DNA of 63,214 nucleotides, the filler included, from Vermamoeba vermiformis (lineage: Eukaryota), in assembly GCA_045837725.1 (NCBI GenBank). It is 5 parts of 5 records of this genome, joined end to end, with 100 filler letters (N's around TTAATTAATTAA, not from the genome) between each part and the next. Parts side by side here need not be neighbours in the genome. Positions count along the whole stretch, not along the records: positions 49,399 to 53,736 come from JBEWZL010000174.1; 4 more parts are not named here. One strand, 5' to 3'. Under the pieces are notes generated by a model, which was not told where the DNA came from, did not search any database, and saw only the letters and a list, made by a program, of their open reading frames with translations. Both the position numbers and the translations under genes were made by a program. Below are positions 27,901-63,214 of the stretch, one piece after another. The stretch's first letter is position 1; each line of letters opens with the position of its first letter.

Positions 27901-28607
27901 CCTCTGAACCTTGACGAGCTCGTAGTCATAAATGTCGTCGGCCACATCCGTCAACCAGCAAATAGGGTAGGTTGATATTGTAGCAAGAGCGCATTGCTTG
28001 CCATCACAAAGCAACTAAGTTAAGGTAAATATCATCCCCTGCAATTGGTCATTGGATCCTTACTTGAAGTACTTCGGTGCCCGTGCTGGCGTAACCTTTA
28101 ACGTAAGATGGAGTTGGGATCACTCTAAAAGAAGTAGGAGCGGGACCACGATACTCAGCATATGGAGCTGAGTAGTATGGATCGGGGTCTTTTTGTGCCT
28201 TCTTGTGGTCTGCGAAGACGTCAGCGCCAAAAATCGGATCTGTTTTCCAATAAAAACTTACCGTCCCATATAATTGAAAGAGGGAGGTTAATAATAGTGG
28301 CCCAGCCAAATGCTTCGTCTTTTAAGCAGGCATTCCACGACCAACAAACTTGGCTTGCTCGGCGCAGATCTTGTGTGTTGAACTTGTTGATGGTAAAAAT
28401 TCTAAATAATATTTCCGGCGGTATGTAATGGGACCACGATGATTCCATACTCTCTTCGTTATTTTGTAGCTTCTTTGGGGTTGTCTTAGCGGCATCCACC
28501 TTGGAAACTGATTTCGTCTTCGATTTCGGAGAAATCAGCTTCTGCTTCTTGGTGGGGCTCTTGTTTTTATCCGAAGCGCTAACTCCTCTCTTTCTTTTTG
28601 GTGGCAT
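24951..28607 (-). CDS. F-box + SNF2-family helicase, copy B (inverted paralog of 6831-10571)
   Basis: MPPKRKR; F-box WSHYIPPEILFRIF; GGVIADEMGLGKT; IIDEGHE; QAVGRAYRQGQ; matching exon layout; ends 7 codons earlier at a TAG. Confidence 0.9.
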
Positions 28608-28792
28608 AGGTTTGTGGACGATAGTTGCAGTTGGTTGTACAAATGTAACGAAAAACAAAATTTTGAAATTCGACTGCAAAAAAAGGCGCCAACATTAACA
28701 ATTGTTGCATTAAGCATTTTAATACTTACATTTATAACAAAGCATAACTTAGCTCTATGCCACGTATTAATATTAACGGATCTCGTTCTGTT

Positions 28793-28976: not shown

Positions 28977-29076
28977 NNNNNNNNNNNNNNNNNNNNNNNN
29001 NNNNNNNNNNNNNNNNNNNNTTAATTAATTAANNNNNNNNNNNNNNNNNNNNNNNNNNNNNNNNNNNNNNNNNNNN
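28977..29076. other. Assembly gap with TTAATTAATTAA linker
   Basis: 44 N + 12-nt linker with stops in all frames + 44 N. Confidence 0.97.
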
Positions 29077-35188: not shown

Positions 35189-36359
35189 ATGAAGCGTCAA
35201 TGTAGTGAATCAGAATTAAATCAACGAAGCCCACAGAAAATCAAGAGAACTCACGAGCGGATCGAGAGTGCAAATAACTTTCGGTACGTTTATTAGTTAT
35301 AAATACGGTAATTATAATTAACTAAAATAATTAAGCAGCAACAAACCGCCGGTCAAAGACTTTACCGCAGCTTTATTAGTACGTAATTAATCAACGGAAA
35401 GTTAGGACAATTGATTTATCATTCTATTGTTTTAAGAGCTCACAAATAGCGAATATAACGATAAGTGGCACGAGTTACGGTTTTGGCTTCCTTTTTGCAG
35501 ACGATCTGCTCGTTACACCTCGCGCAACATTTCCTGCAGATGCCACTACAGCTGAGCTCTCCTTTTTAGCCTGTCCACGCACTCCTTTTAGTGCCACTGT
35601 GCTTTGTTCGGCCAATCGCTGCACTACTCTCCAACTAACGGCAACACCAACAACGAGCGACCTGCGAAACGGAGATCAAGACCTTCAAACAGCCCAACCA
35701 CTTCATTCCATGCGCGTACGCTACGACGCTGAAATTTCAGAGGGTAATGACGTCAAATTAGTAGCATTAGATGAAAAAGAAGGATTGAAATGGATCGAGG
35801 CCAAACTTGGACGTCCTTGCAGTAGCTTCTTTACAGTTGATACTACCTGCACAACAATTCCATCAGGAACGCCAATATTTAACAAAGAGTATGAAGTGGT
35901 TGGTATCGTTATCAGAACTTCACCAGTTGGTATGTTTCGTAGCGGATCAAATCCACCTAGAAATTTATCGAACTAATTGCTATTGCAGACGGAGTTACTG
36001 CTGGCTATCTTAACGAGCTCGATCTCAAAGTTAAAAGAGAGAAGCAGATCATCGTGCGGCCCGTTTGGATGCTATCAACATCAGCCTGCGAGGCGGTAGT
36101 GCAGGATCTGGTCAAACAACCGGACAGCTGGCGAAAGATTGCTGCAGAATTATATATCGATCCACAGAATATTGTTAATCAGGCAGGCGACGATGAACTC
36201 GCGCGATGTCGGATGCTGCTTGAAAGATTGGACAGCGAGCCAGTGTTAAAGCTGAAGAGTGCCCTCAATGAAATTGGTCTGCATCAAGCCGCGCAACAAT
36301 TAGGGTCGACTGAGTTCACGCACGATCCTTTCAGGAGCCGCTTAAAGCTCAATCCGTAA
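35189..36359 (+). CDS. Inactive trypsin-like (Trypsin_2) domain fused to C-terminal Death-like domain
   Basis: Four exons splice in frame. Trypsin-fold motifs SYGFGFLFADDLLVTPRATF and IPSGTPIFNKEYEVVGIV; then SWRKIAAELYID..DELARCRMLLERL..VLKLKSALNEIGLHQAAQQL. Confidence 0.7.
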
Positions 36360-42270: not shown

Positions 42271-43314
42271 TTATTTACGGTACATAAACTTTTGCTTTGC
42301 TCTTCTATTATTGTATTGAGGGCGGCCCAGGCTTGGTCTTCCAATAGAGTTGCGTATCACTCTAGGTCGTCCACGCTTTCCTTTGCGCACTGCATAGTGA
42401 AGAGCTTGCTTGTCCTGGTGAGTAATTTCAGTTTGTTCCAGCTCCATTGCCCATCCACTATAAGGACCAACAGATTCTTTGGATACATCTTCTGTTGGTA
42501 CATAGGGAAGCTGTCCCCCTGGTCCTTTCCACCAAATCTTCTTTCCACTGGAGTCAAAGGCACGTTGGGAGTCTTGTTTGCCATACACCTTCAGGAAATC
42601 ATTCTCAAACCAAGTTTTCATTTGAGCATCTTGCATGTTGTAGTGATCTGGTAACTTGGCAATGAATTCCATCACAATTGCATGTAGAGCATCCAACAGA
42701 GTTTGCAAAAACTGAGGTTCGTTCAGGAGGCTAGCAGGAGTGAAAGGTGGAATGTTTGCCTTATGGAGAGTTTCAGCACGCAGATAGTTTCCAACTCCAG
42801 GAAAGAAGTCTTGATCCAGCATCAATACACAGAGAGGAGTAGTAGCCAGGTTCTTGCGGGTAGCTTTCAACTTCTGTTGCAGGTGCTTTTTGAATGCTGA
42901 TGGTTCAAGGAAGAAGTCATGTGAAAGAGTGTCAGGTTTGTAATCCACATATATAACAATGTGGTTGCTGGGCTTGTGGAAGAGTCCAATGACCAAGCCA
43001 TCTGCACGATGGAAAGCAATAGCCACAAATTTGCTTTCAGCTTCATACTGTTCAGGGGTAAGAAACACAACTTGTCCTTTCATGCTGAGAGAGATGTAGA
43101 GAGTGTGCTTAAGTTGACGTTTTTGCCGCAGCTTGATAATAAGCCACTTTCCAATGGCAGAGGCAGAGAGAGTATACTGTCCATTCATGGTAGGTAGGGG
43201 CTCTGAAGAAGTAGGTACTTTGTATGGACCAGTGGATATTGAGTTGAACTTGTGGCCCTTTGCTTTGGCATTGATGGCACTTGCATCTAGCTTGTTTTCA
43301 AGGTATTCTGGCAT
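42271..43314 (-). CDS. NEIL1-like (Fpg/Nei) DNA glycosylase/AP lyase, intronless, C-terminal AT-hook
   Basis: N-terminal MPEYLE (catalytic Pro2/Glu3); SASAIGK; H2TH PLCVLMLDQDFFPGVGNYLRAETLHKANIPPF; zincless-finger-like LKVYG..DSSGKKIWWKGPGG; tail KRGRPR. Confidence 0.92.
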   Translation of the reverse strand: MPEYLENKLDASAINAKAKGHKFNSISTGPYKVPTSSEPLPTMNGQYTLSASAIGKWLIIKLRQKRQLKHTLYISLSMKGQVVFLTPEQYEAESKFVAIAFHRADGLVIGLFHKPSNHIVIYVDYKPDTLSHDFFLEPSAFKKHLQQKLKATRKNLATTPLCVLMLDQDFFPGVGNYLRAETLHKANIPPFTPASLLNEPQFLQTLLDALHAIVMEFIAKLPDHYNMQDAQMKTWFENDFLKVYGKQDSQRAFDSSGKKIWWKGPGGQLPYVPTEDVSKESVGPYSGWAMELEQTEITHQDKQALHYAVRKGKRGRPRVIRNSIGRPSLGRPQYNNRRAKQKFMYRK

Positions 43315-43492
43315 TTGTTGTGTTGTCTTTAGAATCAATTTAAAAATGACAGTTTGCTAAGAATTCTCCTTTTATACCCTACTATTTTAGAAAGTCAGCG
43401 AAATTTTGACGAAAAATCAACGAAATCTATTACTTCTAGAAGTTTCTCATTTTATTTAACTAGCAAGAATTTCGCAGAACGTCAGGAACTAA

Positions 43493-46030: not shown

Positions 46031-49000
46031 ATTTCAAGGATTCCTGTGGGGCTCAGCTGGTAGGACTTGGTGAGCTTTCTCATTAGTAGTACTAACCTAG
46101 AAACTAGGAATGAAAGATCTGTGCACTATTGAAACTGTTGCCCTGGTGCTTCGCCTAACACTGCAGTGTATTCCTGATTTGCAGCTGACTAGTAATTTCT
46201 TTCGCTTGCTTGCAACCTGGATTCAATTTGCACCATTATCAAGCTCAGCATTACATCAATTGAAAGTTGATTTAATTGAAGCTCTTGGACCAGTAGCTGG
46301 ATGGACTCCGTGCCAATCATACGTTTCTATTGGAGCAATACTGTCTGCTGCTATCAAAACCTTGCCCACAGCTGAAGCAACCCTTTTTTGCACTTCTGAA
46401 GAGCACAGATCAAATTGCCGCTGCCCCTTAACTATCAAACAATTCAACAACCCAACTGTTTATGTTGCTGAGAAACTTTCTGACAGTACGCTCTCCGTTC
46501 AGGCTTCAATTCACCATTTGATAGACTATTGCCAAAAAATGCCTATGCCGTGTGAATTTTGTGGAGAATTTGCAGTGGAACATCGTAAGAAACTCCAGTG
46601 ATGTCAAAGATATATTCTTACAAATGTGTTAGGAACAATGCACCTTCCAACCGTTCTCACAGTGGAGTTGGGCAGATATAAGAGACAGTTCACCAATATT
46701 AATTTACAAATTGAACCAACTCTCCACTTTGGAGATAGCACATATAGTCTACTAAGTGCTTTGATGTGTGATGGGGTGCACACCACGTGTTACTTTCTTA
46801 ACAACAACGCCACATACTTTTATGATGGGATGCAAAACAATGGTATAGCCTATCGAGTGAATGAAGATATCAATGTTAGCAAAAACAAACAATACATTGA
46901 TCATTTGGTGTACATTAAGCAGCAGGTCTGTTGACATTTGTCTGTATTCCAGTATTGACAATCTAAATAGGACCTGGCAACTAAGAAAGAAGTTAATGGA
47001 ATTGCATTGTTTCAATCCATTATATCAAAAGCTGAAGAGGAGCCACTCATCTCTCGCTCATTTTTCAGAGAGCTCACAGCCGTGAAAGTTCCCTCTCAGA
47101 AAGCCCAACATGCAAAGAAAGACAAACTAGTGAGTGAACAGTCAATAACAAAGGGTATGTTTTCGCTTCTAAAAAAACACCTCTAACTTGTTTACACCAG
47201 TTCAACAAGATAGCTGTTGTAATGCAAGGTGCACTTCATTGTTTACGTATCAACAGATTCTCAAATGTCGCAAAATGGTAGCTGACATGAATGAAAGTGA
47301 AAAAACAACTTGGCTATTGAAATTTATGGGAACCAACATGAATATATCAGATCCTTCAGTTGTGTTTTTGATCAATGGAATGTCAGTTTGTCAGTTGGCT
47401 TTCTGTCGGATCTATGGTGTAGCCGTTCAGAAAGTGATTCACTGCAAGCAAATGCACCTTAATGGCAGTACTGCAACTCTACATGGTAATTACTTTCGAG
47501 TATATGATACTCCAAAGAGAGACTCTGTTGCAGCATGGATTTCAGCTTATTGTGAAACCTATGGAGACTATGTTCCTACAAAGGATGAAATTCACTTACC
47601 ATCTCATTTAACGTAAGTTTGTATATAAAATAGAATATGGTTGTAATTACTAGCTTCAGAAACAAAGAGTGGTACAAACTTTTTGCAGAAGAGTGCAAAC
47701 TGCAACGGCCAACTGAAGATATTCCCAGTTTTGAGACATTCAAGCAAGTGAGGCACAAGCAATTTAAGGTACATTAACTTGAATCCTATTAATACTAATT
47801 ATCAATTTAGAATGTTAAAAGACCGAAAGAAACCAGACTGGGAAAGTGCTCAACATGCCTATTAATTAAACAGAAGCGACTTCAATCTGGTCTGTGTGAA
47901 AAAACTCTTTCAGCTCTTAAGCAACAAATGCAAGATCATATAGCCTATATTACCAGAGATAGACAAGGTTATCGAGTTCGAACAGATATTGCTATCAAGC
48001 AACCTCACCTCAAGATGAGTGTCATTACGGACAAAAGTGGCTCATTTTGGTTGCCTCATTTTCATCCAATGCCAAAAGAATGGACAAATGTAACTTTCCT
48101 ACCTGTCAGTTTTGTTGGCTTCATCAACCATGGTCTGAACAAGAGAGAATTGGTGTTTTTCAAGGAAACAGATTATGTAGCAGATTCAGACTTTTACATC
48201 TCACTGCTTTTCCATCACCTAAAAGAGTCACTTCTCACTCTAGACCCAGGCAAGAGACCAAGAACTCTTTACTTGCAAGTAGATAACAGTGCCGCAGAAG
48301 GAAAGAACCAGTATCTGCTACAGTTTGCAGCAGCTTTAGTGCACCATAACTGGTTCGATGAAATATTCATTCACTACCTTCAACCTGGACATACCCATGA
48401 AGACATTGATAGATTGTTTCAGTTATTCCACACTTACTTTCGATGGAAAGTTATAGAAACTATGGACCAAGCAGTGGAATTTGCCAGAGCCATCTATCCA
48501 AAAGACATTCTCATTCGTGAATTACAATGGCCAGTATATTCATGGAAGAAATGGTTTCTTGGCTTTTCACAGTCAATAAGTGGACATAAGGACAAGTATG
48601 CATTTTGGATCAAACCTGGACTTGACAACACTCCTTCTCTTTTGTATAAGAAACAGTCACTGGATAATGAATGGACGGAAGTTAAAGATGAACTTTTCAG
48701 CGCAGCTCCATCTGGTCAGCCTTCTGTGATACAACCCACTTGCCCTTCTGCCGATTTGATTCAAACTATTGTTAGCAAGGCTCAGAAATTCTTGTCAAAA
48801 CAAGTAAGCTTTCAACTTTGAAACCGTTTCTTAAGGCTAGTTTAGGCAATTGAATATTTCGAAGCTCTGGCACAATACAAACCGATTCAAAGTTCTGAAG
48901 CAATGTTCTCCATTGGGCAAGTGAAACCAGAAGTGCCTGCCCCAATAATTAGTACTAGCTCAAAACCAGAGGTAGAAGTGTTAACCAAAAAGCGCAAACG

Positions 49001-49241
49001 AGATTTCACTCAGGGTATGCTGTTGGCAACTATTTGAACCAATACTAATTCTTTTCAAGACCAAGAGGAATGGATTGTCAAAAGAGTAGTTGACCATAGG
49101 AAGAATGGAAACAGATTAGAATGGTTGGTTCTGTGGGAAAATGGAGAGCAATCGTGGGAACCACGAAATTGCTTCATTGATGCTGACCAAAGCAAAAACC
49201 AGGAATGGGCAGAGTATGAACAGAAAAGAAGGAAAAAATAA
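46031..49241 (+). CDS. USP-like cysteine peptidase - Sola-type DDD transposase - chromodomain fusion (5' exons probably start near 45440)
   Basis: FQGFLWG..DLCTIET (Cys box), CEFC, LPTVLTVEL, GVHTTCYF..YFYDGM (His/Asp box). In-frame splicing into CCNARC, LGKCSTC, VITDKS, LYLQVDNSAAEGKN, GHTHEDIDRLF. Last exon EWIVKRVVDHRK..EWLVLWENGEQSWEP. Confidence 0.82.
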
Positions 49242-49298: not shown

Positions 49299-49398
49299 NN
49301 NNNNNNNNNNNNNNNNNNNNNNNNNNNNNNNNNNNNNNNNNNTTAATTAATTAANNNNNNNNNNNNNNNNNNNNNNNNNNNNNNNNNNNNNNNNNNNN
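49299..49398. other. Assembly gap with linker
   Basis: N run containing TTAATTAATTAA. Confidence 0.97.
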
Positions 49399-49624
49399 TC
49401 TGCTGTGGTTCAACTCAAGTCAGATTGTTTTGCTACGAGCAAAAATGCCAAAAAGGCCTACCGAACAAAGAAAAGAATTATGCAACTTGAACCCATACCT
49501 GACGCTCCAGATGTTTAATGTTTCAAAAGTTTATTGTTGCTAAGTACTAATATGTGTATATAAAACAAAAACTTTCTGCAGGAATAGAATTAAAATTTCA
49601 TGGTTAAGCCAGCTTGGTCGGAGA

Positions 49625-51629
49625 TTATGCAAATTGAATGTCTTCTTCCGACTTAATTTCAATTACTGGCTGAGGTCCTTCTCGTCTGCCCAACGGATCA
49701 GCAACGAGTACCTCCTTTGGGAACAATACGCCCGTCTTCTTTTGGATCACAGTGATAGGAGTTTGGTAAGTCTTGAATCTACCGTACGGTTGGTTATATT
49801 CGGGGCCTTCAAGGTAGTTTCTGATGAGCTTATCCTGCGTCTGGATGTACGCGGTTGCCTACCAAGTTTTAGCATTGTCTGTTTAAACGTAAGATAGTAC
49901 TTACGAACAACTTGTTGTTGTGAAGAGTAACGACCACTTTCCAAAACTCGCTTGGAATTTGCACACCATCGTAGTAGCCGTCAACAGGACTCAGCACTGG
50001 GCCAGTGAAGACAGTGACAAGGAAATTGTTGTCAGTTGCGCGATTGAGGACGTAGTTCTCGAGCTCGAGCCACGTCTTCTGATTCAAGTCCTTGTGCTGA
50101 GGAGAGCAGTTGGTGAAGTGGAAGGTGTCTTCATTCGCATTAGTCACTTCGCCGTCATCTCCCCAGCATGGATCAAGTCTGCGAACCAAGTGACCACGAT
50201 CGAACATCAAACCTTCCTAATTAGGTAAAGAAGTTAATCCCTGACAACGACAAAGCAGTCTTAATATCCGTACCTTACGAGCGTTGGAGTAAAAAGTGTT
50301 TGACAACTGGTCTGCAAGAGGAATGCGCGGGTCGTACTTCCACACGTCGCGTCTGTGCACTTGAACCAGTTTTCTTCCGTCGATGTTGACTGCGGTGAAG
50401 AACGCAAGTCTTCGGTCCTTATTGAACACAATGCTGAAGTGCTCGTACTTGAACTCAGTGCCATTCTCGTGCATCGCAAGTTGGTCTTGTAAGTCGGGGC
50501 GAACAGTTGGCAACGGAACTTCGTGCTGCAAGAACGCGGGATCGTATCCGGATCGTCCATTCAGTTCGTCCTCGGAGAAAACGCGTTCGAGATTTCGAGG
50601 TGGTGCGGTTAAGAGAGGAGCAGGTGGAGCAGGCAAGGGTCGCATTATTTGACCGTGGAACAATCTGTTGGCAATCTCGACGATCTTAGCACTCTCCACA
50701 GCAACATTGGCAACACCATAGACGCCACCGTAGTGCAGGCCAATAGCTCTTCCAGTGACTAGCGACAGAATCACTGAGCCACTGCTGCCTCCGAGAGTCG
50801 TTGCGTCGTGGAAGATGTCAGTGGGATGGTGCAGCATTGTGTCGTCCTTGTAAGCGTAGCCAGGCGACAGTCTCTTGACGTCGTAGATGTCGTCAAAGTA
50901 GTACGACATTTCTTCATCAGGATTGCGAGAGTCGTAGGCAGGATGGCCAATGACGACTATCGGATGCTTCTTAGGCAAATGACCGACGACAGCGCCGGGC
51001 TCCAAAGGAATAGGACTGCGAGGCGGATGGTTTACCGGCCATGCCAAGCGAAGAATTGCGATATCCACGCCGTAATCAGCTTCAGCTGCTGAAGCAATAT
51101 AGAGCACCTCAGCAATTCCTGCCTAAACGGGAAAGTGTAAGGAAGGAAATTTCATCGAGTTTGCAATGCCTACCTCTTCGGTCACGAGTGACAGATGCTC
51201 AGCAGTGAAGTTCACTTTGACTGTGATCCCACGCTGAATTTCTCTATTGGTCGCGCAAAAACATAGCGCCACGTGTCTGTTAGTGACCATGATGTTGTCG
51301 TGGATGAGCCATCCGGTGCCAAAGTACTTCATCAATTTGATTTTTGGGTTGTGAGACACAGCGTAGATTCTGCCCACGGACCGCGTGAAGTTCTTCACCA
51401 TGTAGAAAGCGAGCTCGACTTGCTTTTGAAACGGACCAAGTGGGACAGTAGGGAAAGTATCATTTTGGATCTTCACCGTGGGTCTGCCTCGTGCGTAGAT
51501 GATGGCCTCACGTTTATTTTCGTCGCTTTCCACTATTAATCATGAGCATTAGTTAAACGCTAGGCGAAGATGAATTACTTGCGTACATTGCGGCGGGCGA
51601 GCTGGTTTAAAGCTGCTGTTGCGTTCCAT
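49625..51629 (-). CDS. Trypsin-like serine protease fused to DNA/RNA non-specific (NucA/EndoG, beta-beta-alpha-Me) endonuclease, bacterial-type
   Basis: EAII..RP..IQND; triad TNRHV / VDIAILRL / HDATTLGGSSGS; linker GYDPAFL; nuclease YEHFS..RRLAFFTAVNIDG, FDRGHLVRRLDPCWG, TFHFTNCSPQH..LNQKTWLELE, IPSEFWKVVV; four GT-AG introns. Confidence 0.92.
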
Positions 51630-52873
51630 GATGTTCGATTAATAATGAAAAAAAAGAGCCTTAACTCTTTAAATGTCTTTCGCTAGTACTTAAATTGTAA
51701 TTTCAAATTGAAACATTATTCCGCTGAATTTGTAAACTTGCCCGTGTAAGCTGTAAACGAAGCAGTTTTTTTACGGATCGCTTTAAGATTTGGCGCTAAA
51801 GGCGCAATCATGCAGGATATACACTATCAAATGAAAAAGCAACAATATTCAATTATTAAACACTAAATTAAGACTTGCCATCAAAATGCCTGTCAGGACG
51901 CGGAAAATTAAACAGACATGTCTTTCCAAAGTAGGCATGGCAACTGGGTTATTATTATCTCGAGAAAGTTGTGTAAATCAGCGACTGTAGACCACGTGTG
52001 AGTAACTATTTGATTCGTTTAACTTAGTCTCAATTCCCTAACAAAATTATTGAACGTGTTAATTTCAACCTGTAGCTGACTATATTTATATAACAATTAA
52101 TTGAAATTTAATCGAGTCTGAATTGATTAAAATGAAATCAAAGGTAAGTAAAAACGGATCTTGCTAAAATTTAATTATTATGATAGTGTCAGACCCCGAT
52201 TATTACCTTAGCAGTTGATTACTGATAATGGCGTATATTTTTCAGCGGTTTTGGACAAGGTCATTTTGTTTTTATAACGGTAAAATTTAATGAAGACGTC
52301 GCAAAAAATTAATGAAATAATTGTAAAAAAGTGGATTGCATCATTAATGGATTATTTAACATTATATCTAATTTCCTTCGATAATTATATTTTTACGTGG
52401 CTTAGAATTCAAATTTAAAATTGAGCTTTTTAACTCTCACCTTGCATCTCCAACAGCTGTCATGCTGACACAGAATGCGGTCACCATATATAAAGCAGCG
52501 AATAAAAACAAATTCTATCACATTGTCAAACCAGTTGTGGTTGTGGTCGAGTTACCGGATCAATGATGAAATGATGGACGCGACATGCGCCTCCTCATCG
52601 TGCGATTTTGACCAAATCGAATAATTAGTTAATCTATCATATGATATGACGAGTGGCAGCGGATAAAGCACTTTGCACGAGAAAGAATGGAGATCGAGTT
52701 CGGATACGGAATTGACTCAATTTATCAAATCCTCATCGTGCAAATTCATTCATAATACGTTCATTTGCTATACAGATAGCATTCTATATCATGATATGTT
52801 TTTGAGGACAATCGCACGCTTCAATTCTAAAATCCGCATCGATACAAATACAGTAAACTTTATTTTACGCCAA

Positions 52874-53629
52874 TTAGCACTGCATTGCCATCAAATACAA
52901 TAACATGGTACAAAGAGTTAGTGAGATATTTTGGAGTCCTAATGTAAGACTGTTTGCTTCGCTTGTCTCTGGATCGGAGTTTGGTGTTGGGTTTTCGCTT
53001 GGTTGATCTAACAGGCAGTACGATGCACCGATAAAAGGATACTGCGTCATGCATGTTGCAAATGGCGATATATAGGAGTATACGCACTCACTACAATCAG
53101 CATTGCATTGTGATTGATAAACAGATTCGGATGTGCTGTTGCAGAACGAATTACTAGTAACGTTGTTCAGTGTAAAACATAATGGTGCCGTTACTGATAT
53201 GGAGTGTATATTATTGGGCAATATATCACAGCTATAGTTCAGTCTCGTGATGAGAACAGTCGATCCTTCAACGAGCGCTCCTGGATTTGGCAAAGAATTG
53301 ATCGTCACGTATGAGAATGCTCCACCAAAAGTCATGTAGCATGTGTTGTGAGGGGTAGGAATAGGAGAACAATCAATAGAGCAAGCAGTATCTGAGCACC
53401 AAGTTACGGTCAATTCGCCATCTTGAAACGTTGCTTTTCTGGATGTGTTCGTCAAGTAGCTAAGGGGCAAGCATACATTCAATGGCATTATAGTAGTGAT
53501 TTGAGCGCCTTGAGTGCAATTATCGTCGGTGAAAGAAGTCACCGTCCAGTATTCTGCCGGCAGTTCTGAAATTTTCAGCGCGCCATAAGCGGATGCGATA
53601 AAAAATACGAGAATAACAATTGCTTTCAT
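52874..53629 (-). CDS. Secreted Cys-rich, probably GPI-anchored surface protein
   Basis: Signal peptide, two Cys-rich halves, many NxS/T sites, Pro/Ser linker, hydrophobic C-terminus. Confidence 0.75.
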   Translation of the reverse strand: MKAIVILVFFIASAYGALKISELPAEYWTVTSFTDDNCTQGAQITTIMPLNVCLPLSYLTNTSRKATFQDGELTVTWCSDTACSIDCSPIPTPHNTCYMTFGGAFSYVTINSLPNPGALVEGSTVLITRLNYSCDILPNNIHSISVTAPLCFTLNNVTSNSFCNSTSESVYQSQCNADCSECVYSYISPFATCMTQYPFIGASYCLLDQPSENPTPNSDPETSEANSLTLGLQNISLTLCTMLLYLMAMQC

Positions 53630-53736
53630 TGTATCAAATACATAGAATTGATTGAATATGAATTATTTCCGCTTGCAATTTATCGCCATAACGTGAATCT
53701 TTCGCGCGTAACTTTGTGATCCACTTCAAAGTTTGT

Positions 53737-53836
53737 NNNNNNNNNNNNNNNNNNNNNNNNNNNNNNNNNNNNNNNNNNNNTTAATTAATTAANNNNNNNN
53801 NNNNNNNNNNNNNNNNNNNNNNNNNNNNNNNNNNNN
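53737..53836. other. Assembly gap with linker
   Basis: N run containing TTAATTAATTAA. Confidence 0.97.
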
Positions 53837-55921
53837 ACAGAAACACCTTTAGCGTCCTCTTACATCTATTTTGCTGTCATTTCAAGTGAAGGACATCTAT
53901 TTTTTGGTTCAGCGACCAATCTCTGGGACCATCAGAATACGCACAGAAAGCATTGGCCCACCAGCCATAAACTTTAGCTGAAGCAAAGGTTTGAACTTTG
54001 GATCTGTATCGCTTGAGTTCTAAACTTTCTTTCTCGTGTCCTGTCTGCAGTCATGGACGTTTGTTCAGTACATTAATTATTTGAAGTTGGAGAAGCCAAA
54101 CCTCAAATGTCTCCCCTTGTGGGTCCTTATCTTATCTTGCAGAATGCCATTGGAGGCCTTTTGCATGTGGTGGGAATTTTAACTGAGATCTTGCAAGTCA
54201 ATTTGGATGCTCTATCCATTCTCAGTGAAAGCTCAGTGAACCCTATGGCTAAAGGAGTACGCATGAACACTGCCAAGCTTGACACGCACTTGAAATCCAA
54301 TCATTGTCCAAGAGAACTGTAGTGTGGACATGACTCGTGCAAATGATAAACGTCACTGGGCACTGCAATGCTCCAGGGCCCTGGGTGAGCGCTCTGTTCT
54401 CCAAAGAACTTTCCAGTGCCAAGTATTGACCACGCATCCATCATAAACTGAAGATACTATGTCCCGTCCGCCTTTGCAGAACAATGACATTTTCCCTCCA
54501 GAGGTTGGCCAGGCCAAGTTGGCCAGTGTGGCCAAGCCTTTGTGGCCAAAAGCCTCCCGATGCCAATAGTAGCCCTTCCTGGGTCCGCCAGTGCTAATGG
54601 CAAAGTTTGGTATTAGTTGGTCTATTACTAACATCAGTGGACACGGCAACCCCATATCCGCCACTAGTTTTATTTTACTTATTTGATTAAGCGTATCACA
54701 CCAGCAGCTGTGGACAAATTCATATAAATCAAATTGAATCTTGCAATTATGTTGTTGTACCAATTGGTGATGGATGCTGACAAATTTCACTAATTTAAAA
54801 AAATCTTGGATGACTACGTATCATATAGCAGTGTGCCACTGGAAAAGTTAAATGCATTAGAGCAAAATAAATATTTCCATGAGTTCTTTAAAGAACATTT
54901 TGCAGCCTATTTTCTAAATGCCCAAGCTGTGAGCCTAAGCCGGATAACCGTAGTACCTTGGGTCCGCTGGTGCTATTGAAAAGTTTGGTGTAAATAGGTC
55001 AATTGCTAACACCAGCGGATGCAGCAACCTAAAAGACACACCCCATGTTTTGCCATTCAGTTTCTTCTTGGTGGTAGTTCAACGCTACACTCAATGAGCG
55101 CAGTGTGGCAATGATATCAACAACTTGACTCCCATGGAAACAGCCATATTTTCTGATGTTCAGCTTCCAGAAAACGGTTGCCAGACCAGATGTATGCCAT
55201 GGTCTCTCCTGTAATTTGATTTTTTGGATAACTTTGTTGAATATCTATTTACAACTTCCCCTTATGCAATCAGAGGATGAATTGAAAGGGCTACAGAGAT
55301 AAAGGAAAAGGGAGAGAACTGAACATCATATCATGTGGTTCAATAAAATTCAATTCATGCAGCAAGGTGAAAGGTGCCATTGCTCTTTGCGGGGCAATCT
55401 AAGTGCAAAGACTTTAATGTGCCTGAGTTAGTAGTAAACAGAATTTGCTCCAGTTTGTTTTTATAGTGGTCTTTGTAGTATGCCAGATCTTCATAGAAAT
55501 TGCAGTTTAATGAGCACCAAGGCGCACTGAAGACCTGTTCGGATCCTAGGGTCAGAAATACCAGTTTGCATTAAATTTAGTGAGGGATTGTCTTTGTAGG
55601 AGTAGGTCGCTGGCTTCCATGCACCATGCTTCTCATTCAATGCAACATCGGTATTCATTCAATGCTAAACCTCCATGTCAGCCTGTGTGAGCCTGAAAGG
55701 ATAATCAAATGAAGTTGCCGTTGTTGGCATGACCTGACAGACACCACTAATGGCTTGTCACCCCCACGCCCAAAGTGCTCCTTTTACAGCTGGCACCTGG
55801 ATCCCCAGAAAGAGTTTGTTGTTACACACAATTTTTACGAGGAGTTTTTTACTTAGGGACAGGGACCAAAATTAGGTTGAAAAATTTCATTTCCACATCC
55901 CACCAACAACAAACGGATGCT
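53837..55921 (-). pseudogene. Degenerate CpG-poor remnant, probably mobile-element derived
   Basis: Short broken frames, isolated contig, low CpG; no firm family assignment. Confidence 0.35.
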
Positions 55922-56021
55922 NNNNNNNNNNNNNNNNNNNNNNNNNNNNNNNNNNNNNNNNNNNNTTAATTAATTAANNNNNNNNNNNNNNNNNNNNNNN
56001 NNNNNNNNNNNNNNNNNNNNN
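55922..56021. other. Assembly gap with linker
   Basis: N run containing TTAATTAATTAA. Confidence 0.97.
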
Positions 56022-56110
56022 TTACATTATATTGCTGATATTTATTGCAGTAATATTTTCGGCATATTTATTTTAATACTATATTCTACATTTCTAACTT
56101 TTTACTTTAG

Positions 56111-58873
56111 TTGGCGAATCCTCAGCTGCAAGCACTTTCGTTAAAATCCAAAGTGGATATTTACCTGGACTTTTTGGTGAAGGCTCGCAATCGAAAATGG
56201 TTCGACGCAGGCTACGCAGATGAACTCGTACGGCAAATTCTCCTTCATCCAAACCACGCTAGCCGCGAAGATTTCATCTTCTACTTTGTCCTCTTTGCGT
56301 ACCATCAAATGCTGCCCCCGTTGGACGACCAAAAGCTGTATTATCCTCTTTGGTACTTTGAGTACCGCGATCGTGTCGCGAGCACTCTGGGACTGAAAGT
56401 GGACGGTCAGCAGTGGTCCGATTTTAACACCGCATTCAACGTGTTTCCTTACCGGCTTCAATCTGCAATGGCAATGTGCGCCGTTCGTGCCTCGTGTCGA
56501 CAATCAATATCGGGCATGGAAGTGCAAAGCCAATTCTACTTTCTCTGGTGCGCTCTTCGCTTCAAGATGGCCTATTGGCAGTCAGATGACACATTACGAG
56601 TTCTCCTTGATGAATTGCAAGCCGAGAACCCGAAATGTAATTATGACTCGCCCTTGTTCACGCTTGACCATAAAAATTACCTCGCGCCTCCCCTTCAAAG
56701 TATGTTTCTTTGTTACCGGTATTTGTCTAATTTCCACGTTAAGGGACTATCCTTCCCGTAAATACAATATCCAAAAGTCAGCAAAAGAAGAACAAGAAAA
56801 AAAGAGCGGATGCTGGCATTATTGAACAGATCCGGTTCGAACGTGTTGGATTTATTGGCGAATGTCATGGCATTGGCGAACGCTGGTTCCATCCAGAGCA
56901 GTTTAATACTGCAAGGGCAATTTACGTCATTTCTACAAGTAACCGAAAGCGCAAGATCGACGAAGTACGAAGCGAAAGCAGTGCACCGAAACGCAGAAAG
57001 GTACGATAAAAAGGAATGTAATCATAACTGAATATTTGTTATTTAGATCGATGATAGTTTTCGGCTAGAGGATCACGAAATCCAAATCTCCGATCAGCCA
57101 GATCAAGCCGAACAATACTCGCCAGTAGTAAGCCCTCGTATTTATGATGCAATAGAAATGCCCGTAAGTAAATATTTTACTGCATATGAACCTTATTGCT
57201 AATACCAATAGGATTCCCCAAACGTGCCTGCAACTCCGCCATCCGAAGGTGAGCAAGCCGAAGAAGTTGCACGCGTTGGCAAAGTAATTTCTGGCCAAAA
57301 AGTTGCTGTGGACAGCGAGGATACACGAAGAACCCTTGAAGAAAACGTACCTGCTTTGCGTGCAACAACAGCGAACGACGTGATACCTGTTACGCTCTCT
57401 CTTTCGTCAGTGCCACGCGAACTCTGGCTTGGCATTATATGGGATCTGTTGCAGACGCCGCGTGCTATAGCTTGCTTCGCTCAGACATGCCACCAAGCGC
57501 TAGAAACTGTCGTTGATTGCTTCTCTCGGAGTGCTACTTGGCAACGCTTCAAGATCTACGCCAAGTTTGCTTCCTTGGGTCTCAAGTATGAACTAGTCCA
57601 GCCTCATGAAGTGTATTCTTACCACTTCGAAGTCGACACTCTGCGCTCTTTTCGGCTCAACGCAACATCTTTTGGTCAGCTACGCGAAGCCCACTTCCAC
57701 CACTTCTGCCTCGTGCCAGATGACATCTGCTACGTACTACAAAGTTGTACCAACATAAGGACACTGGCTTTTCATGGCTCTAACTTAATTCCTGAATCTC
57801 TGGATAATTTATCGCGGATGTAAGTTTCCTTGCACGGATTTGAACGACAAAAACTAATTTATTCGTTAGGGCAACCCGAATTCAAGCACTACAAATAAGC
57901 GAGCCGAACGCTGTCTTGGGGAAGGCGAGGGTACACCTTAATATCTCCCAAAATCTCCTGCCGATCTGCTTTCCAAATCTGGCGGCTCTTTCGATGCGAA
58001 ACATGACCATGGCGACGCAAACTTACTACATGCCCGGAGCTTTATCAACCCGTCTTTTGTTTTTGGATTTAAGAACTAAGGGCTACGTTAACAACTTCTA
58101 TGGCTTTTTGAAGATGCGAAATCCGTCGACAACTTCCGTCATAATAGAGCTCTACAAGCTCTTTCCTAATCTCCGTGGTTTACGCTTGCCGTTGGCCGAT
58201 CGTCCTGCCCTAGGGAGAAAAGTGGTAATCACTTTCCCGACCCCGCCTCCCTCTTTGGAGTTTTTGGAGTTGTACGGCTATGCAGATCTGGGCGTTGAAA
58301 TCGATCTTGATCACGTTGATACTGGGCAGCGCTTGCGCCATATCAGCTTGATTGATTTGCTCTTTCGGTTTCCGTTCCGCGAGACTCTCAGCCTACCGCC
58401 CGATTATGGCGATAAGGATAGGAAAAATTGGTCGCTGTACATTGGAGGTACTACGCTGACCTTAAACTCGCGCATCTTTGAGGCACTCCTCAAGCAGAGA
58501 CCGTAAGTAATTGTATTTAACTGAAATATTTTTTTATTAATTTAATTTAATTAGGTTTTCTTGGGATTACAAACAAGGCGTTGAAGTACGCCTGATAGAG
58601 CGCCCTAATATCTTTGCCGAGTTGTTCGACATCGCACAGAAGATTGCTATCAACTCTTATTCGGAAGCCGAGAGGCAGATGCTGATCGAGAGAAATCGAA
58701 GCTCGAGCCGTTTTATGCCAGACACACCTGATTTTCGTTTCGCTTCGGATGTGGTAAAAGAAGAGTACTACCGATTAATGAAGCTTCCTGGCGTATTTGA
58801 AATCCGTGACCGCGCTAATTTCAGGCGCTACAAAGATTGGTTCGACTGTTTCGTTGCCGAAGATCGCTTATAA
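56111..58873 (+). CDS. Large multi-exon protein with internal F-box-like motif and degenerate LRR-like region (5' end missing)
   Basis: Exons from 56111 splice in frame (via a RKRK..KRRK exon) into ORF 57224 with LSSVPRELWLGIIWDLL..AIACFAQTCHQ; later FPNLAAL / FPNLRGLRL / LEFLELYG. Confidence 0.55.
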
Positions 58874-59001
58874 ATTTCACATAAAAATAGACCAATCGCC
58901 GTCGAGGCAGGTTTTTGGCAACCCACTTTCGGTTGGCGCTCTTTCGTCTTTTGTACCATTTTTTGGATCAAGCAACCACAAAGTAAGTAGCGCGAACTCT
59001 T

Positions 59002-61027
59002 TTGCAAGGATCGTTGTCCTTCTCAGCTGAGTTCGCTTGCTCAGCTGCTAGTCAAAGTGTTCTCCTTCTGCGACAGAAGGAGGTACTTTTTTTTTTAAAA
59101 CTTACTAACGCTTCGTCACGGTTAGTGGATGTACTGGACACAGTCAAGAAATTGGCAGTCAAGCCCAAGCGCAACGTTAGTCACGCCACCTCCGACGATC
59201 GTCGCTTATCATTACACCGATCTGCTCGCAAAAAAAGACGACTCTCTCCCCGTGGTTTCACTCCAGTTTGGAAGAAACCCAAGCTTCATCACGACAGACT
59301 TAGCCCGGTATCTAACGATCAGGTATGTAATTATTAACATATCTCGTATTATGGAGATTTTTTGGCGCGCTTTACTTAACTCCAATTTTAGAACTCACCG
59401 GACACCGACTCAACCCAGCAAGCTACAAGTTTTGTCAACTACAAGTCCCCTGTTCGTGCTTTAGTACGGCGGCAAGCGAAAGTTCAACGCGTTCTTGCCT
59501 ATGAGTCCTCATCCGATCGCTCGAACCAAGAGTCCATTCAAAGTAGTAGTATGGACGAAGGAGAAGATGAAGAGTTGGCCGAGTCTGACGACTTGGACTC
59601 TCCTGAGCTTGCTCAAAAGGATTGGGATGACCTTCACAATCAAGAAGAGCAACCTACTGCTTCGGATGCGGAGTTTGTCGAGTCTGATAGCCTTGGCCAC
59701 AACGATGAGGCCGATTACCAGCCATCCTCCGATGTCCCAATGTCTTCGTCTTTTACTTCCTCCAAAAGCTCTTCAAGATCGGCGCCTTCGCTGAAAAGTC
59801 CTGGATCGGTAAGTTCTCGTCCTCCTACTCAAACCACAAACTAATAGTTAATTTAAGGATAAGCCCTTAGATGAGCCTTCGCAAGTAGCTGCCCCCTCCA
59901 AGGAACAACAACCCCTTGCCGAACCAGAAGCAACCACGGCCGAGCCAATTAAGAAGCGCCGCATCCACTTGAAGATTTCAAAGCCAAAAGGCAAGCAGTG
60001 TACTCTTGTATTTCAGATAAACGTTATGGATGATTAATATTAAATATTAGACTCTTCTATATCTGAGATCGATGCGGGCCGCAAGCAATTTATAAACAAT
60101 TTGATTGAAATTATCGATCAACTGCCCCTGCACGATGTCAAGTTGCGAGTTTTGCAGACACCTGATGGAGCATCTCTTCAAGCTGTTGTATGTGACGCTG
60201 ACGAGTACCCTCTCTCGCAACATGGCTTAGTCGACATTGAGAACATTAAGCGAGAGGTTATTAAAGCTCGAGACAAAGAATCCTTTGATTTCAGTAAGTA
60301 CTCAGAACCTAATTCTAAGCTTTGCTAACAACATTTAGTGGGGGCTTCTGCCGGAGTAATGAATGCCATTCGTTCGTGCTCTTTTTCACAGACATTGTAC
60401 GCAACGGTCATGAGCTCGGAGAACTTTATCGAGATTGCAGGGGTCAAAATTAAGATGGCTGGCCTGAGTGACTTTGTGTTACGTGGTCAACTACCCGCTG
60501 CTGATGCGCCAGCTGCATTGACTTCGCAAATCAACCGAGCCTTGACTCATCTTCAAGCAGTAGCTACCGTCCAAACCGATGCTTGCGTGCTTGGCAAATT
60601 AAAACTGTTCTACCTTGGCGGCTTATTGAAGGCCTGGACGAAGAAATTACACGCGGACAAAACAGAAAAGAATCCTAATCTCAGCGAAAGAATTATCGAG
60701 CAGTTGGTCAATGACGACCTGTACAAGTTGATATCTACTGAAGTGCCTGCTTTGGTGCGCGTGACTCCAGACGACTTTGACGCAAGGGCTGCTGTTCAAT
60801 CTGCTGTTCCTCAGTCACCACTTCGCCGTGACGGATTCCGCGCTTGGAAGTCAAGACTTTTAAAGTTCTTTGCTCTATGCTCTATAGAAAAAAACCTATT
60901 ATTCTCGGATATTTCCTTTAGCTACATCGCGAAATCGTTTCCTAACGCGGATGTTGCTGGCGAGCTATTCGCGTACATTAATTCAAATTTAGACGAGTTC
61001 CCTAAATGGAAATTACAAATAAACTAA
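59002..61027 (+). CDS. Hypothetical multi-exon protein (basic and acidic low-complexity N-terminus, helical C-terminal domain)
   Basis: ORFs 59002-59337, 59551-59844, 60101-60328 and 60338-61027 separated by short GT-AG introns. Confidence 0.5.
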
Positions 61028-61040
61028 ATCTGTTTATTTA

Positions 61041-62933
61041 GTGGAACTCACTGATATAACAAACCGTGTTTTGAACTCCGCCAATACCAGGTACTGCTCA
61101 TCCCGATTCGGATGCGAAATGACCGTTATTTTTAGTTATCCTGGGAAGCTAGCAAAGACCAAGAGTATTATCGATATTTTAATGCCCAGCGAGTTACCGG
61201 AAAAAGAGAACTTCAACGCGAATGACTTTGCCTCTGATCTTGTCGAAGATGGTGAACTCACGAAATATTTTTACCAAGACTTCAGTCTCACTCCTGGAAA
61301 GGGTAAGTAATAATAATGCGTTATACATGGCAATTGACTAGTTCCAGATCTATTAGATTACGACAATGAAACCGTCGAATCTACACAACCTGTTGTTGAA
61401 TCCGGCTTTAGCCAGCCACCCGAGAGCTTTTCACAGCACGATCAACTTCCTGAACAACGATCCAAGCCTTCAAAGGGTCGCTCTGCATTTAGACCAGTTT
61501 GGAAGGAGAAGGTGCCTAAATTTGTGCCGCTGCGTTCTAGATCTCGATCCTCATCTGCCACCGAGGTTACAAGCTCCGAGAGCCAGAATTACGAGACTAA
61601 CGAAGTTTGGAGCGATACTGCGAGTAGTGTTATTGATCTAACGAAGTTTGGCGACATGGATGTCAACAGTCAGTATGCAGTACTAACTAGTGCAGAACGG
61701 TACGCGGGATGACAACCTTTCACAGCGACCTATTAACGCGTGCTAATTTAGAAAGCATATGGTTCGTCGGGCTTCTGGAGGAGTTCGCTATCGCTCCGCA
61801 TACAAAAAGCAACTCAGACAGGCCCTTGCCAACGGCTCCTTAAAGCCAACATTGTTTACGCATCGCATGTCGAAGTCTGCTGTCACAGTTGCAACAGAAT
61901 CCGACTTCGATTCAGCTGCGTTTACGGACTTGAGTTGGCTAACATCGCGAACAAGCTACGCGCCTGAACCGTATCTGACGGAGAACAAAGACTGCAATTT
62001 GGTTCAAAAGTTCGATCTTGATTTTACTGGGTTGTTATTCGAGTCTTTTTCATTTGTCAAAACGACGATTGCTATGATTTACGCGCCCAACCTGGCGTTA
62101 AAAATGCCGAGCTCAAAGATGCATTATAACGGAAAGGGTATTCACAATTTTGTTAATACCCATTTCGGGTAAGTGATCATGTTAATATAATATTTTCTTA
62201 TTCAACTTAAATTTTAAAGGGACGTTGACGACAAATATCGCATTTGGGTCTTCTTTCCTTTCACTGTAACCAGTGAGTGGAGTAATGTCATTCACCATTT
62301 CTTCGAGCATTGCGTTCACACAGGTAATACTCATACAAGAGTTAAGCACCAATGCTAATTATTGCGCAGGTGTATTGTCTTCACCTCAGTCGCGAAGCAC
62401 TCCGATCGCTAGACCTTACGCTACTTTGCGCATGGTTAAAAAGGCTGGTTCAGCGTGCGCGATTTATGCTGAGACGTTATCGCACATGCAATCGGTCCTC
62501 AAAGACTACACAGCAAGCTATCCCGAGTGCGTTCTTTTCCAATTATTTGCAGTTTAGTCAACTAATATATTCCAGGTACGCACCTGCTTTTGCGATTCAA
62601 CGATACGGCAAAAAAGAACGAATGTCGTTACGGGCTGAGGTAGAGACGCACTGGAAGGAGTTGTCTTCGATGTTCAACATGGAGATGGTTAACGTTCGTA
62701 AAGAAGGCGAGAAAGCGTTCTTCTATCAAGATGTTGCCATTGATATAATGTACGTAGACTAGGCCTTGTTAGTTCCTCGCTAACGATAAATATCAGGTGG
62801 TTAGGGTTAGGGGCAGATTCCTTGGCGAACGAAGTGAGGGTTAGGGTTAGGGATGTATCTACCAGCTTTGCACTTCCTTTGCAGGCTAGCTGCAAAGCTC
62901 CCATTTGCACATGAAGTAGACTGGTCAGAAGGA
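61041..62933 (+). CDS. Hypothetical multi-exon gene whose last exon contains telomeric repeats (likely truncated)
   Basis: Exons 61041-61304, 61759-62169, 62220-62322 and others; putative last exon WLGLGADSLANEVRVRVRD is built partly from TTAGGG units. Confidence 0.5.
62799..62852 (+). repeat. Two short interstitial telomeric tracts
   Basis: GG(TTAGGG)2 at 62799-62812 and AGGG(TTAGGG)2 at 62837-62852. Confidence 0.9.
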
Positions 62934-63017
62934 TTATGACCCAAAGTGGTCCCGTGTGGATAAGTGTCAGCGACTTTGCGGAGGAAAGGCCCGACCATGA
63001 CTTTGCAAAAATTTTTT

Positions 63018-63214
63018 GGGTTAGGGTTAGGGTTAGGGTTAGGGTTAGGGTTAGGGTTAGGGTTAGGGTTAGGGTTAGGGTTAGGGTTAGGGTTAGGGTT
63101 AGGGTTAGGGTTAGGGTTAGGGTTAGGGTTAGGGTTAGGGTTAGGGTTAGGGTTAGGGTTAGGGTTAGGGTTAGGGTTAGGGTTAGGGTTAGGGTTAGGG
63201 TTAGGGTTAGGGTT
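63018..63214 (+). repeat. Telomeric array (TTAGGG)n, chromosome end
   Basis: About 32 perfect TTAGGG units to the end of the window, G-rich strand running 5'->3' toward the end. Confidence 0.98.

Follow-up and report, generated by a model that had tools for sequence, protein, structure and literature searches.

The DNA analysed here is a stretch of 63,214 nucleotides from Vermamoeba vermiformis (GenBank assembly GCA_045837725.1; the window, i.e. the whole stretch), within which five contigs (1-28976, 29077-49298, 49399-53736, 53837-55921 and 56022-63214) are joined by artificial linkers, so that gene order across contigs is no evidence of linkage. The third of these contigs carries a minus-strand gene at 49625-51629, whose product combines a Trypsin_2 protease with an Endonuclease_NS nuclease, both being separated by a Pro-rich linker of approximately 35 residues. 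In the following, the gene and its product are described, compared to bacterial relatives and discussed with regard to their possible function.

The gene, its transcripts and its product

The gene comprises five exons, which jointly give a coding sequence (CDS) of 1797 nt and a product of 598 amino acids (aa), and four introns of 46-57 nt, each of which possesses GT..AG borders and a GC content of 0.33-0.41 as compared to 0.50 for the CDS (Table 1). The 598-codon reading frame is uninterrupted, and its start ATG is the first to follow an in-frame TAA located three codons upstream. At every exon junction the model is co-linear and gapless with both the close relative P0001 (599 aa, see below) and bacterial homologues, and for the exon 5 region tblastn of the model returned 100% across aa 522-598. 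The composition of the gene is host-like: the ratio of observed to expected CpG (o/e) is 1.06 in the CDS versus 0.96 in the window, GC at third codon positions (GC3) is 0.57, and both GC3 and CpG lie inside the range of the other open reading frames (ORFs) of the window, with an overall GC content of the gene of 0.50 versus a window mean of 0.41. A reading of the locus made earlier from the DNA alone (the sequence-only reading) had placed a gene with four spliceosomal introns and normal CpG content at exactly these coordinates, which is borne out by the model, by the CpG values and by the spliced RNA contigs described next.

Public sequencing runs were searched for the stretch, whereby 20 of the 24 runs listed (10 studies) hold at least part of it, and four runs (X1, X5, X15 and X17) were mapped in detail. 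The DNA run X1, a possible source, yielded one contig over the stretch in which the introns are retained. From run X5, which is labelled 'RNA?', a single contig of 1,898 nt was obtained that has 0 differences to the window and lacks all four introns, its joints coinciding with the borders of the model; its 3' end (49510) is located just beyond AATAAA and ATTAAA. Contigs that are 1-2% diverged from the window came from X15, an RNA-Seq library labelled with another organism, and from X17, a biofilm metatranscriptome; each of the four introns is skipped in X15, and introns 2-4 are skipped in X17, whose cover excludes intron 1. The RNA contigs extend into exon 1 up to 51612 (X5) and 51626 (X15), and their cover excludes the first bases of this exon and, for example, 50494-50807 in X15 and X17. 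As the introns are removed in the RNA contigs of three studies and kept in DNA, the gene is a spliced nuclear gene and no contamination, as had been argued from the introns in the sequence-only reading; the same contigs document its expression. Between the X15 and X17 contigs and the window, 28 single-letter differences were counted (2 in the 3' untranslated region (UTR), 20 synonymous and 6 non-synonymous), which, with 405 of the 1794 coding sites being synonymous, gives a rough dN/dS of about 0.09, a value that is approximate given the incomplete cover. The gene is maintained by purifying selection and, being intron-bearing, spliced, expressed and selected in this way, it is in use.

Pfam was run exon by exon, with cut-offs of 27.6 bits for Trypsin_2 (PF13365) and 23 bits for Endonuclease_NS (PF01223). 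Exon 3 alone exceeds both (31.1 and 30.9 bits, respectively) and exon 4 alone reaches 107.5 bits for Endonuclease_NS, while exon 2 alone stays below the cut-off for Trypsin_2 (14 bits), as expected of a split domain; full-length P0001 scored 46.1 bits for Trypsin_2 and 164.8 bits for Endonuclease_NS over profile positions 18-220 of 223. A comparison with NCBIfam revealed no meaningful family. The protease triad consists of H101 (TNRHV), D154 (VDIAIL) and S248 (GGSSGS), and the nuclease site of DRGH at 423-426 (H426), N453, P456-Q457, N462, W466 and L469-E470, whereby the DRGH histidine is presumably catalytic, the asparagine metal (Mg)-binding and the conserved glutamate functional as described in the Serratia nuclease literature. 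Both sites are intact, as had been noticed before, and the motifs GHPAYDSR (193-200), KRLSPG (217-222) and GYDPAFL (326-332), which had been pointed out as typical, are all present and correspond to columns conserved throughout the family. An alignment of 114 family rows (A3) holds H in 113/114, D in 114/114 and S in 114/114 rows at the triad columns; the R-G-H/N/N/E columns of the nuclease are conserved in 113-114 rows, and its catalytic His, Asn and Glu (H426, N462 and E470) are invariant in all 114 rows and intact in the window protein, in P0001 and in the further relative P0002. Conservation in A3 further concerns K215-R216 of the KRL motif (113-114 of 114 rows), E23 and R31, both part of an N-terminal motif (109 of 114), and the GY..FL motif directly past the linker, where G323 and F328 are conserved and Y324 is nearly invariant. 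The number of residues ahead of the N-terminal motif has a median of 55 in the bacterial rows and is 22 in P0001 and the window protein, i.e. approximately 33 fewer.

Kyte-Doolittle (KD) hydropathy revealed neither an N-terminal hydrophobic stretch nor a membrane segment, the maxima being 1.16 in the first 60 aa for KD(9) and 1.27 in the whole protein for KD(19); on this basis the earlier statement that a signal peptide is absent holds, and the protein is considered to be soluble and presumably cytosolic. Structure and fold were computed for P0001 (76-81% identical) using alignment A3. The AlphaFold2 (AF2) model obtained has a mean predicted local distance difference test value (pLDDT) of 88.7 and a predicted TM-score (pTM) of 0.71, and low confidence is restricted to residues 1-20 and to residues 303-308, the latter being part of the Pro-rich linker. 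With Foldseek, the nuclease half was matched to Serratia nuclease, EndoG, NucA and ExoG (TMt 0.64-0.72; 1qae, 4e3y and 1smn 0.71, EndoG 6lyf 0.72), which points to a beta-beta-alpha-Me fold, and it aligns to NucA and Serratia nuclease by sequence as well, whereby the DRGH and LNQ motifs line up. The protease half was matched to staphylococcal Esp (6u1b, TMt 0.75) and to an exfoliative toxin (5c2z, TMt 0.55), indicating a double beta-barrel, and the protease is hence predicted to be of the S1 type with a glutamyl-endopeptidase-like fold. Among the models of PADLOC, the protease part matched the 'nacht' model (1.9e-14) and also reverse transcriptase (RT)-protease models.

Bacterial relatives and the origin of the gene

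The same fusion of Trypsin_2 and Endonuclease_NS occurs in hundreds of bacterial species of at least eight phyla at 32-42% identity. When exon 3 was used for searching, 211 proteins longer than the query matched at E<=0.001; among the 120 matches listed, all possess PF13365 and PF01223, and each organism name given is bacterial. P0001 (599 aa, encoded by a 1,896-nt contig; 76% identical over exon 3 and approximately 80% over the whole model) and P0002 (682 aa, 2,157-nt contig; 65% identical to the window protein) stand apart from the remaining matches, which are 27-44% identical, and among proteins of near-query length the window's own exon-3 ORF was the only close match. An exhaustive HMMER search with P0001 against 1.84 billion 50%-identity representatives returned 5,659 matches at E<=0.001, 874 of which reach E<=1e-30, whereby the near-full-length matches jump from the P0001 cluster to 41-44% identity (one partial match reaches 49%) and a single eukaryote-type 50%-identity cluster was identified, consisting of the window protein, P0001 and P0002. 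When bacterial contigs were considered (one genome per species), at least 572 of 586 candidate stretches were found to encode a relative, with query residues from about 22 to 598 matched, and the Atlas clusters closest to P0001 are 97-100% Bacteria. Judged from these sequences, the fusion is abundant and old in bacteria, with one tight eukaryote-type cluster next to it. The bacterial-type architecture that had been claimed is confirmed by fusions which are common in bacteria and alignable from end to end, and the broad vertical distribution among eukaryotes that would have spoken against horizontal acquisition was not found among the 1.84 billion representatives.

Among viral contigs of IMG/VR, 3 of 33 pattern matches are relatives, which cover the protease part only (query residues 22-286); a viral vector thus receives no support from IMG/VR, although absence from one collection is weak evidence. 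No relative was confirmed among metagenome contigs (0 of 89 pattern matches with exon 3, 0 of 82 with alignment A2). P0002 follows the family up to the exact position of intron 4 and then continues into a 3'-5' exonuclease part (PF01612, residues 530-665, profile positions 42-166 of 173), so that its nuclease domain ends early, at profile position 174 of 223, and its C-terminus differs over residues of approximately 522-682; alternative or read-through splicing could account for this, as could a genuine exchange of exons or chimerism of the assembly.

Two trees were calculated. The first, quick one has 73 rows, i.e. 63 loci (out of 70 with a fusion-family ORF, seven having been removed by a length filter of 520-760 aa), seven proteins of the P series, the window model, P0001 and P0002, the latter cut at residue 530. 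In this tree the three eukaryote-type rows group together (support 100) on a stem of 1.13 and are weakly placed (SH-like approximate likelihood ratio test, SH-aLRT, 82) as sister to a 16-row, mostly proteobacterial clade of the lypABC type described below. A more careful tree of 49 rows (46 loci chosen to span the clades, the window protein, P0001 and P0002) again revealed the eukaryote-type clade (100/100; stem of 1.2 substitutions per site) and the proteobacteria-rich clade (100/98), but did not recover the grouping of the two and placed the eukaryote-type clade in a polytomy, so that no donor is named. The narrow eukaryotic distribution and the grouping among bacterial sequences agree with what the sequence-only reading had expected of database searches and phylogeny. 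As the trees are unrooted, the direction of transfer rests on distribution and not on topology. Based on this, acquisition from bacteria of a gene which is real and expressed is considered highly probable.

For 80 of the at least 572 bacterial loci the neighbourhood was analysed, whereby ORFs within +/-8 kb were crudely called and clustered and Pfam was run on one representative per cluster; these loci belong to Pseudomonadota, Actinomycetota, Acidobacteriota, Bacteroidota, Planctomycetota, Chloroflexota, Myxococcota and Thermodesulfobacteriota. Most of them were found to be without a recognisable partner within this distance, as far as the crude clustering allows. Recurrent neighbours are a second Trypsin_2 protein of approximately 585 aa (16 of the 80 loci), an AAA_16 STAND NTPase of approximately 1,030 aa (13) and an S8 subtilase (7). 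The full order of trypsin, STAND NTPase and fusion on the same strand occurs in eight loci, two of which are from Caulobacteraceae; seven of these eight fall into the 16-row clade of the quick tree, and five more members of that clade are without upstream flank. Single-chain forms were identified as well, namely P0168 (AAA_16, Trypsin_2 and Endonuclease_NS), P0217 (2,277 aa; Trypsin_2, AAA_16, Trypsin_2 and Endonuclease_NS) and P0173 (a caspase domain, two Trypsin_2 and Endonuclease_NS), and other NACHT- or AAA_16-bearing forms exist. Such single polypeptides provide Rosetta-stone-type support for a functional link among the genes of the operon. PADLOC gave no match for the LypA- and LypB-like neighbours of the bacterial homologues. 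Together with the fusions in cis to AAA_16 or NACHT, the neighbouring genes for a STAND NTPase, a second trypsin and a subtilase place the relatives in conflict or defence contexts, as the sequence-only reading had stated. In three related Flavobacteriaceae loci (L012, L020 and L024) a patatin-like phospholipase of approximately 579 aa is encoded directly upstream of the fusion, which recalls the phospholipase and endonuclease effectors reported for CARD-NLR systems (PMC10312443).

Comparison with known systems and possible function

The coupling of Trypsin_2 to this group of nucleases was described by Jablonska et al. in 2017 (PMC5714182). Kaur, Burroughs, Iyer and Aravind (eLife 2020) defined a 'System 3: NucA-peptidase', in which NucA (Endonuclease_NS) and a trypsin-like peptidase, sometimes present as one protein, are found with trypsin paralogues, an S8 subtilisin and a STAND NTPase as extras, and they proposed a proteolytic cascade which activates or deploys the nuclease (PMC7159879). 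The extras reported there, i.e. trypsin, subtilase and STAND proteins, were all seen near the bacterial homologues of this study. Their system was described for bacteria, mostly alphaproteobacteria (45 organisms in Table 1 of that work), and no eukaryotic member is mentioned in the section on this system, whereas the window gene is eukaryotic. Subsequently, the CARD-NLR-like lypABC operon of Caulobacter crescentus was reported (Nat Microbiol 2026), which according to that work encodes LypA (CARD-trypsin-ATPase, 592 aa), the NLR-like LypB (1,027 aa) and LypC (trypsin-linker-endonuclease, 662 aa; PMC13236601). LypC resembles the window protein in size (662 versus 598 aa) and in its Ser-His and His-Asn spacings (175 and 34 versus 178 and 36), and the operon resembles the order of a trypsin of approximately 590 aa, a STAND protein of approximately 1,030 aa and the fusion identified in 8 of the 80 bacterial loci. 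Via the architecture and the Caulobacteraceae loci we infer that the window protein is a homologue of LypC, from which it differs in being encoded by a eukaryotic, intron-bearing gene, in its shorter N-terminus and in the absence of a LypA- or LypB-like neighbour. The gene is thus best described as a homologue of the bacterial effector and not as a demonstrated member of the NucA-peptidase or lypABC system.

The fold of the nuclease and its DRGH histidine, asparagine and glutamate are shared with NucA, Serratia marcescens nuclease, EndoG and ExoG (1zm8, 2o3b, 1g8t and 6m3f, among others), and sequence matches to structures of this type range from E 9.6e-09 to 8.6e-06. These enzymes are stand-alone, secreted or mitochondrial and are controlled by compartment or by the inhibitors NuiA and EndoGI, whereas the window nuclease is fused to a protease and carries no targeting signal. 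The protein does not qualify as a mitochondrial EndoG/ExoG for the same reason, and also as its N-terminus carries acidic residues and no presequence-like stretch (inspection and hydropathy), as EndoG chains match the nuclease core only, at E 5.8e-06 or weaker, and as the best relatives are bacterial fusions which are 41-44% identical over the full length; the distinction from stand-alone eukaryotic EndoG made in the sequence-only reading therefore stands. An analogy of mechanism only is provided by the report of Tuck et al. (Science 2025), according to which a trypsin-like defence protease unmasks a pro-nuclease of the metallo-beta-lactamase (MBL) fold by site-specific cleavage in Hachiman, AVAST and other systems (PMC12799240). 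The DNase controlled by the protease in those systems is non-specific, and the protease type of the window protein matches PADLOC models for the protease parts of NACHT and RT-protease defence proteins, but the MBL nuclease originates from a separate gene, whereas the beta-beta-alpha-Me nuclease (Endonuclease_NS) of the window protein is part of the same chain. That effectors bearing an endonuclease replace gasdermin in CARD-NLR systems was reported by Wein et al. (PMC10312443).

Considering all this, the locus is suggested to represent a nuclear gene of bacterial origin that encodes a latent protease-nuclease effector for defence or cell death, a reading to which, as a whole, a probability of roughly 0.5 is assigned. 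The protein would be made as a latent two-enzyme effector, latency being assumed because a nuclease which is cytosolic and non-specific must be kept inactive. The protease, acting in cis or between copies, would then control deployment, for instance through cleavage of the linker, of sites close to it or of other substrates, whereupon the nuclease would degrade nucleic acids indiscriminately, with cell-autonomous defence or regulated cell death as outcome. Standing alone on its contig and being about 33 N-terminal residues shorter, the eukaryotic copy may have lost its coupling to the bacterial sensor and be subject to another form of control. Proteolytic control is the best guess because the protease is fused to the nuclease, because the disordered linker is flanked by conserved motifs and because there is a precedent for a protease-activated pro-nuclease; this mechanism, together with the role in defence or death, is nonetheless put forward tentatively, with odds slightly below even. 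The terms 'protease-gated' and 'antiviral or suicide effector' used in the sequence-only reading are inference only. A more specific version, which is rather unlikely, regards the protein as a sensor-less cytosolic 'death switch' that was captured from a bacterial NLR/STAND system and serves as executor of abortive infection or programmed death, in which case the lost bacterial N-terminal extension would mark the rewiring to a eukaryotic trigger. Animals release an HtrA2-type protease and EndoG separately from mitochondria; if the 'death switch' version were true, one chain would unite HtrA2-type protease and EndoG-type activities.

Several points weigh against this proposal. No second trypsin, STAND- or NLR-like NTPase, S8 subtilase or EAD1 partner gene was found on the 4.3-kb contig or within the 63-kb window, expression is documented in several unrelated samples, and the fold was computed on P0001 with A3 and not on the window protein itself. 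That P0001 and P0002 are eukaryotic transcripts is likewise assumed, as their contigs barely exceed the CDS. LypC of Caulobacter, the only experimentally studied homologue that was found, was reported to bind neither LypA nor LypB in two-hybrid assays, and its S296A exchange abolished lysis linked to the gene transfer agent (GTA), whereas H471A and N505A were without effect (PMC13236601). This dispensability of the nuclease residues of LypC weakens the simple picture of a protease that merely unlocks a nuclease; execution may not be the task of the nuclease, and even for bacteria gating still lacks proof.

The Caulobacter exchange variants lead to the most serious rival, namely that the protein is, like LypC, chiefly a protease for signalling or processing, whose targets execute, while the nuclease is accessory, scaffolding or stabilising. 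Deletion of the nuclease domain was reported to destabilise LypC, a homologue from Caulobacter endophyticus is without this domain (PMC13236601), and the viral relatives consist of the protease part only. On the other hand, the invariance of the nuclease His, Asn and Glu throughout A3 and their integrity in the three eukaryote-type proteins argue that nuclease activity is selected, and in a Pedobacter CARD-NLR system, albeit with a different fusion effector, point mutations of the endonuclease domain abolished defence (PMC10312443); a protein working chiefly by its protease is hence regarded as an unlikely, yet serious explanation. Improbable is a housekeeping or nutritional hydrolase obtained from prey bacteria, which would serve bulk turnover of protein and nucleic acid and have no role in conflict. 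Phagotrophs often keep bacterial hydrolases, and expression in several unrelated samples, including environmental metatranscriptomes, is compatible with such a role, but hydropathy revealed no signal peptide or membrane segment that would direct the protein to phagosomes or lysosomes, a free non-specific nuclease would be toxic in the cytosol, and the contexts in which the bacterial relatives occur are those of STAND, NLR and caspase proteins and not of secretion.

Very improbable is an old, vertically inherited eukaryotic gene or a transfer from eukaryotes to bacteria. The trees being unrooted and the eukaryote-type clade sitting on a long stem of imprecise placement leave room for it, yet one eukaryote-type cluster is opposed by hundreds of bacterial species of at least eight phyla and by Atlas clusters almost entirely made up of Bacteria. 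The position of the gene on a 4.3-kb contig that is connected to the others by artificial linkers only, and its GC content above the window mean, might raise the suspicion of contamination by bacteria, of an artefact of the assembly or of a pseudogene in decay; this explanation is refuted, down to a negligible residual chance, by intron removal in the RNA contigs of three studies, as well as by the open reading frame of 598 codons, the excess of synonymous differences and GC3 and CpG values within range.

For the effector proposed here, the protein family, its architecture and the suggested logic are already in print for bacteria, and what is new is the eukaryotic, intron-bearing, expressed and stand-alone copy. 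Full-text literature searches did not reveal a eukaryote for which a trypsin-NucA effector had been reported, though supplementary tables could list one. Transfer into eukaryotes is known for several bacterial immune modules, and the gene adds a data point on the reuse of prokaryotic NLR-like effectors in eukaryotic cell-autonomous defence or cell death. As a stand-alone copy it further offers a simple system in which to ask whether the module is autonomous and whether the protease gates the nuclease, both questions being open in bacteria. If it were a plain hydrolase, it would merely be another gene acquired by horizontal transfer in a phagotroph.

Coordinates and further features of the window

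Table 1. Positions of the gene parts and of other features along the window
Feature	Position	Strand	Description
Contig carrying the gene	49399-53736	.	4,338 nt, JBEWZL010000174.1; N44-TTAATTAATTAA-N44 linker at each side
Exon 1	51587-51629	-	43 nt; start codon 51629-51627; hydrophilic N-terminus; co-linear with P0001
Intron 1	51533-51586	-	54 nt, GT..AG, phase 1; skipped in X5 (51532->51587) and X15, kept in X1
Exon 2	51174-51532	-	359 nt; conserved N-terminal motif EAI..R..RP and first half of the protease; His101 = 51275-51273
Intron 2	51123-51173	-	51 nt, GT..AG, phase 0; spliced out in X5, X15 and X17, retained in X1
Exon 3	50274-51122	-	849 nt; Asp154 = 51065-51063, Ser248 = 50783-50781; also GYDPAFL motif and start of the nuclease domain
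Pro-rich linker (exon 3)	50654-50550	-	aa 291-325 (approximate)
Intron 3	50217-50273	-	57 nt, GT..AG, phase 0; 7 codons upstream of DRGH; spliced out in X5, X15 and X17, retained in X1
Exon 4	49905-50216	-	312 nt; nuclease core; His426 = 50192-50190, Asn462 = 50084-50082, Glu470 = 50060-50058
Intron 4	49859-49904	-	46 nt, GT..AG, phase 0; skipped exactly in X5; in X15 and X17 the joint carries 1-2 substitutions; kept in X1
Exon 5	49625-49858	-	234 nt, ending with the stop TAA (49627-49625); nuclease domain, C-terminal part, and tail
3' UTR	49510-49624	-	AATAAA 49535-49530, ATTAAA 49519-49514; RNA contig ends at 49510
Sole other long ORF on the contig of the gene	52877-53629	-	251 aa, intron-less, Cys-rich, hydrophobic N- and C-terminus
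CpG-poor ORF	484-1722	-	Leucine-rich repeat (LRR) protein
CpG-poor ORF	42271-43356	-	Fpg/Nei-like DNA glycosylase
CpG-poor ORF	47811-48821	+	DUF7869 protein
Artificial linkers	28977-29076, 49299-49398, 53737-53836, 55922-56021		N x44, TTAATTAATTAA, N x44

For the sole other long ORF on the contig of the gene no Pfam family was matched. Its nearest Atlas clusters are eukaryotic (score 0.90-0.91), with Evosea (Amoebozoa) as commonest phylum, a weak assignment below recognition level (1762 versus 2300); one near cluster consists mostly of Nucleocytoviricota, and 16% of its members carry a CfaA_B_C domain. For a longin-domain ORF, close matches at 94, 66 and 55% identity and plant proteins at 36-45% were obtained, which is uninformative with regard to the host lineage. 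On the second contig, the ORFs 35380-35976 and 35961-36359 were tried as a pair of trypsin-like and Death-like proteins and rejected, as Pfam gave no match and hhalign against A3 a probability of 6%.

In three long ORFs of the window (Table 1) CpG is strongly depleted (o/e 0.26-0.47), while most other ORFs range from 0.96 to 1.25 around a window value of 0.96; local cytosine methylation or a different history may be the cause. Downstream of one of the three, the DUF7869 ORF (134 bits), lies a small ORF that matches a chromodomain only weakly (18.8 bits, under the cut-off), and the resulting region 47811-49241 (+), located at the right end of the contig preceding that of the gene, has the appearance of a transposon-type element. 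The final contig ends, at approximately 63015-63214, in TTAGGG repeats on the plus strand and hence resembles a chromosome end. On the first contig, 10642-11669 and 14071-15087 are tandem copies encoding a multi-pass membrane protein with a coiled-coil tail, and the ORFs 6822-7235 and 9245-9751 (+) have inverted counterparts at 28221-28694 and 25707-26240 (-), respectively. The near-duplicate ORF sets at 6822-11669/14071-15087 and 25707-28694 suggest a large inverted duplication.

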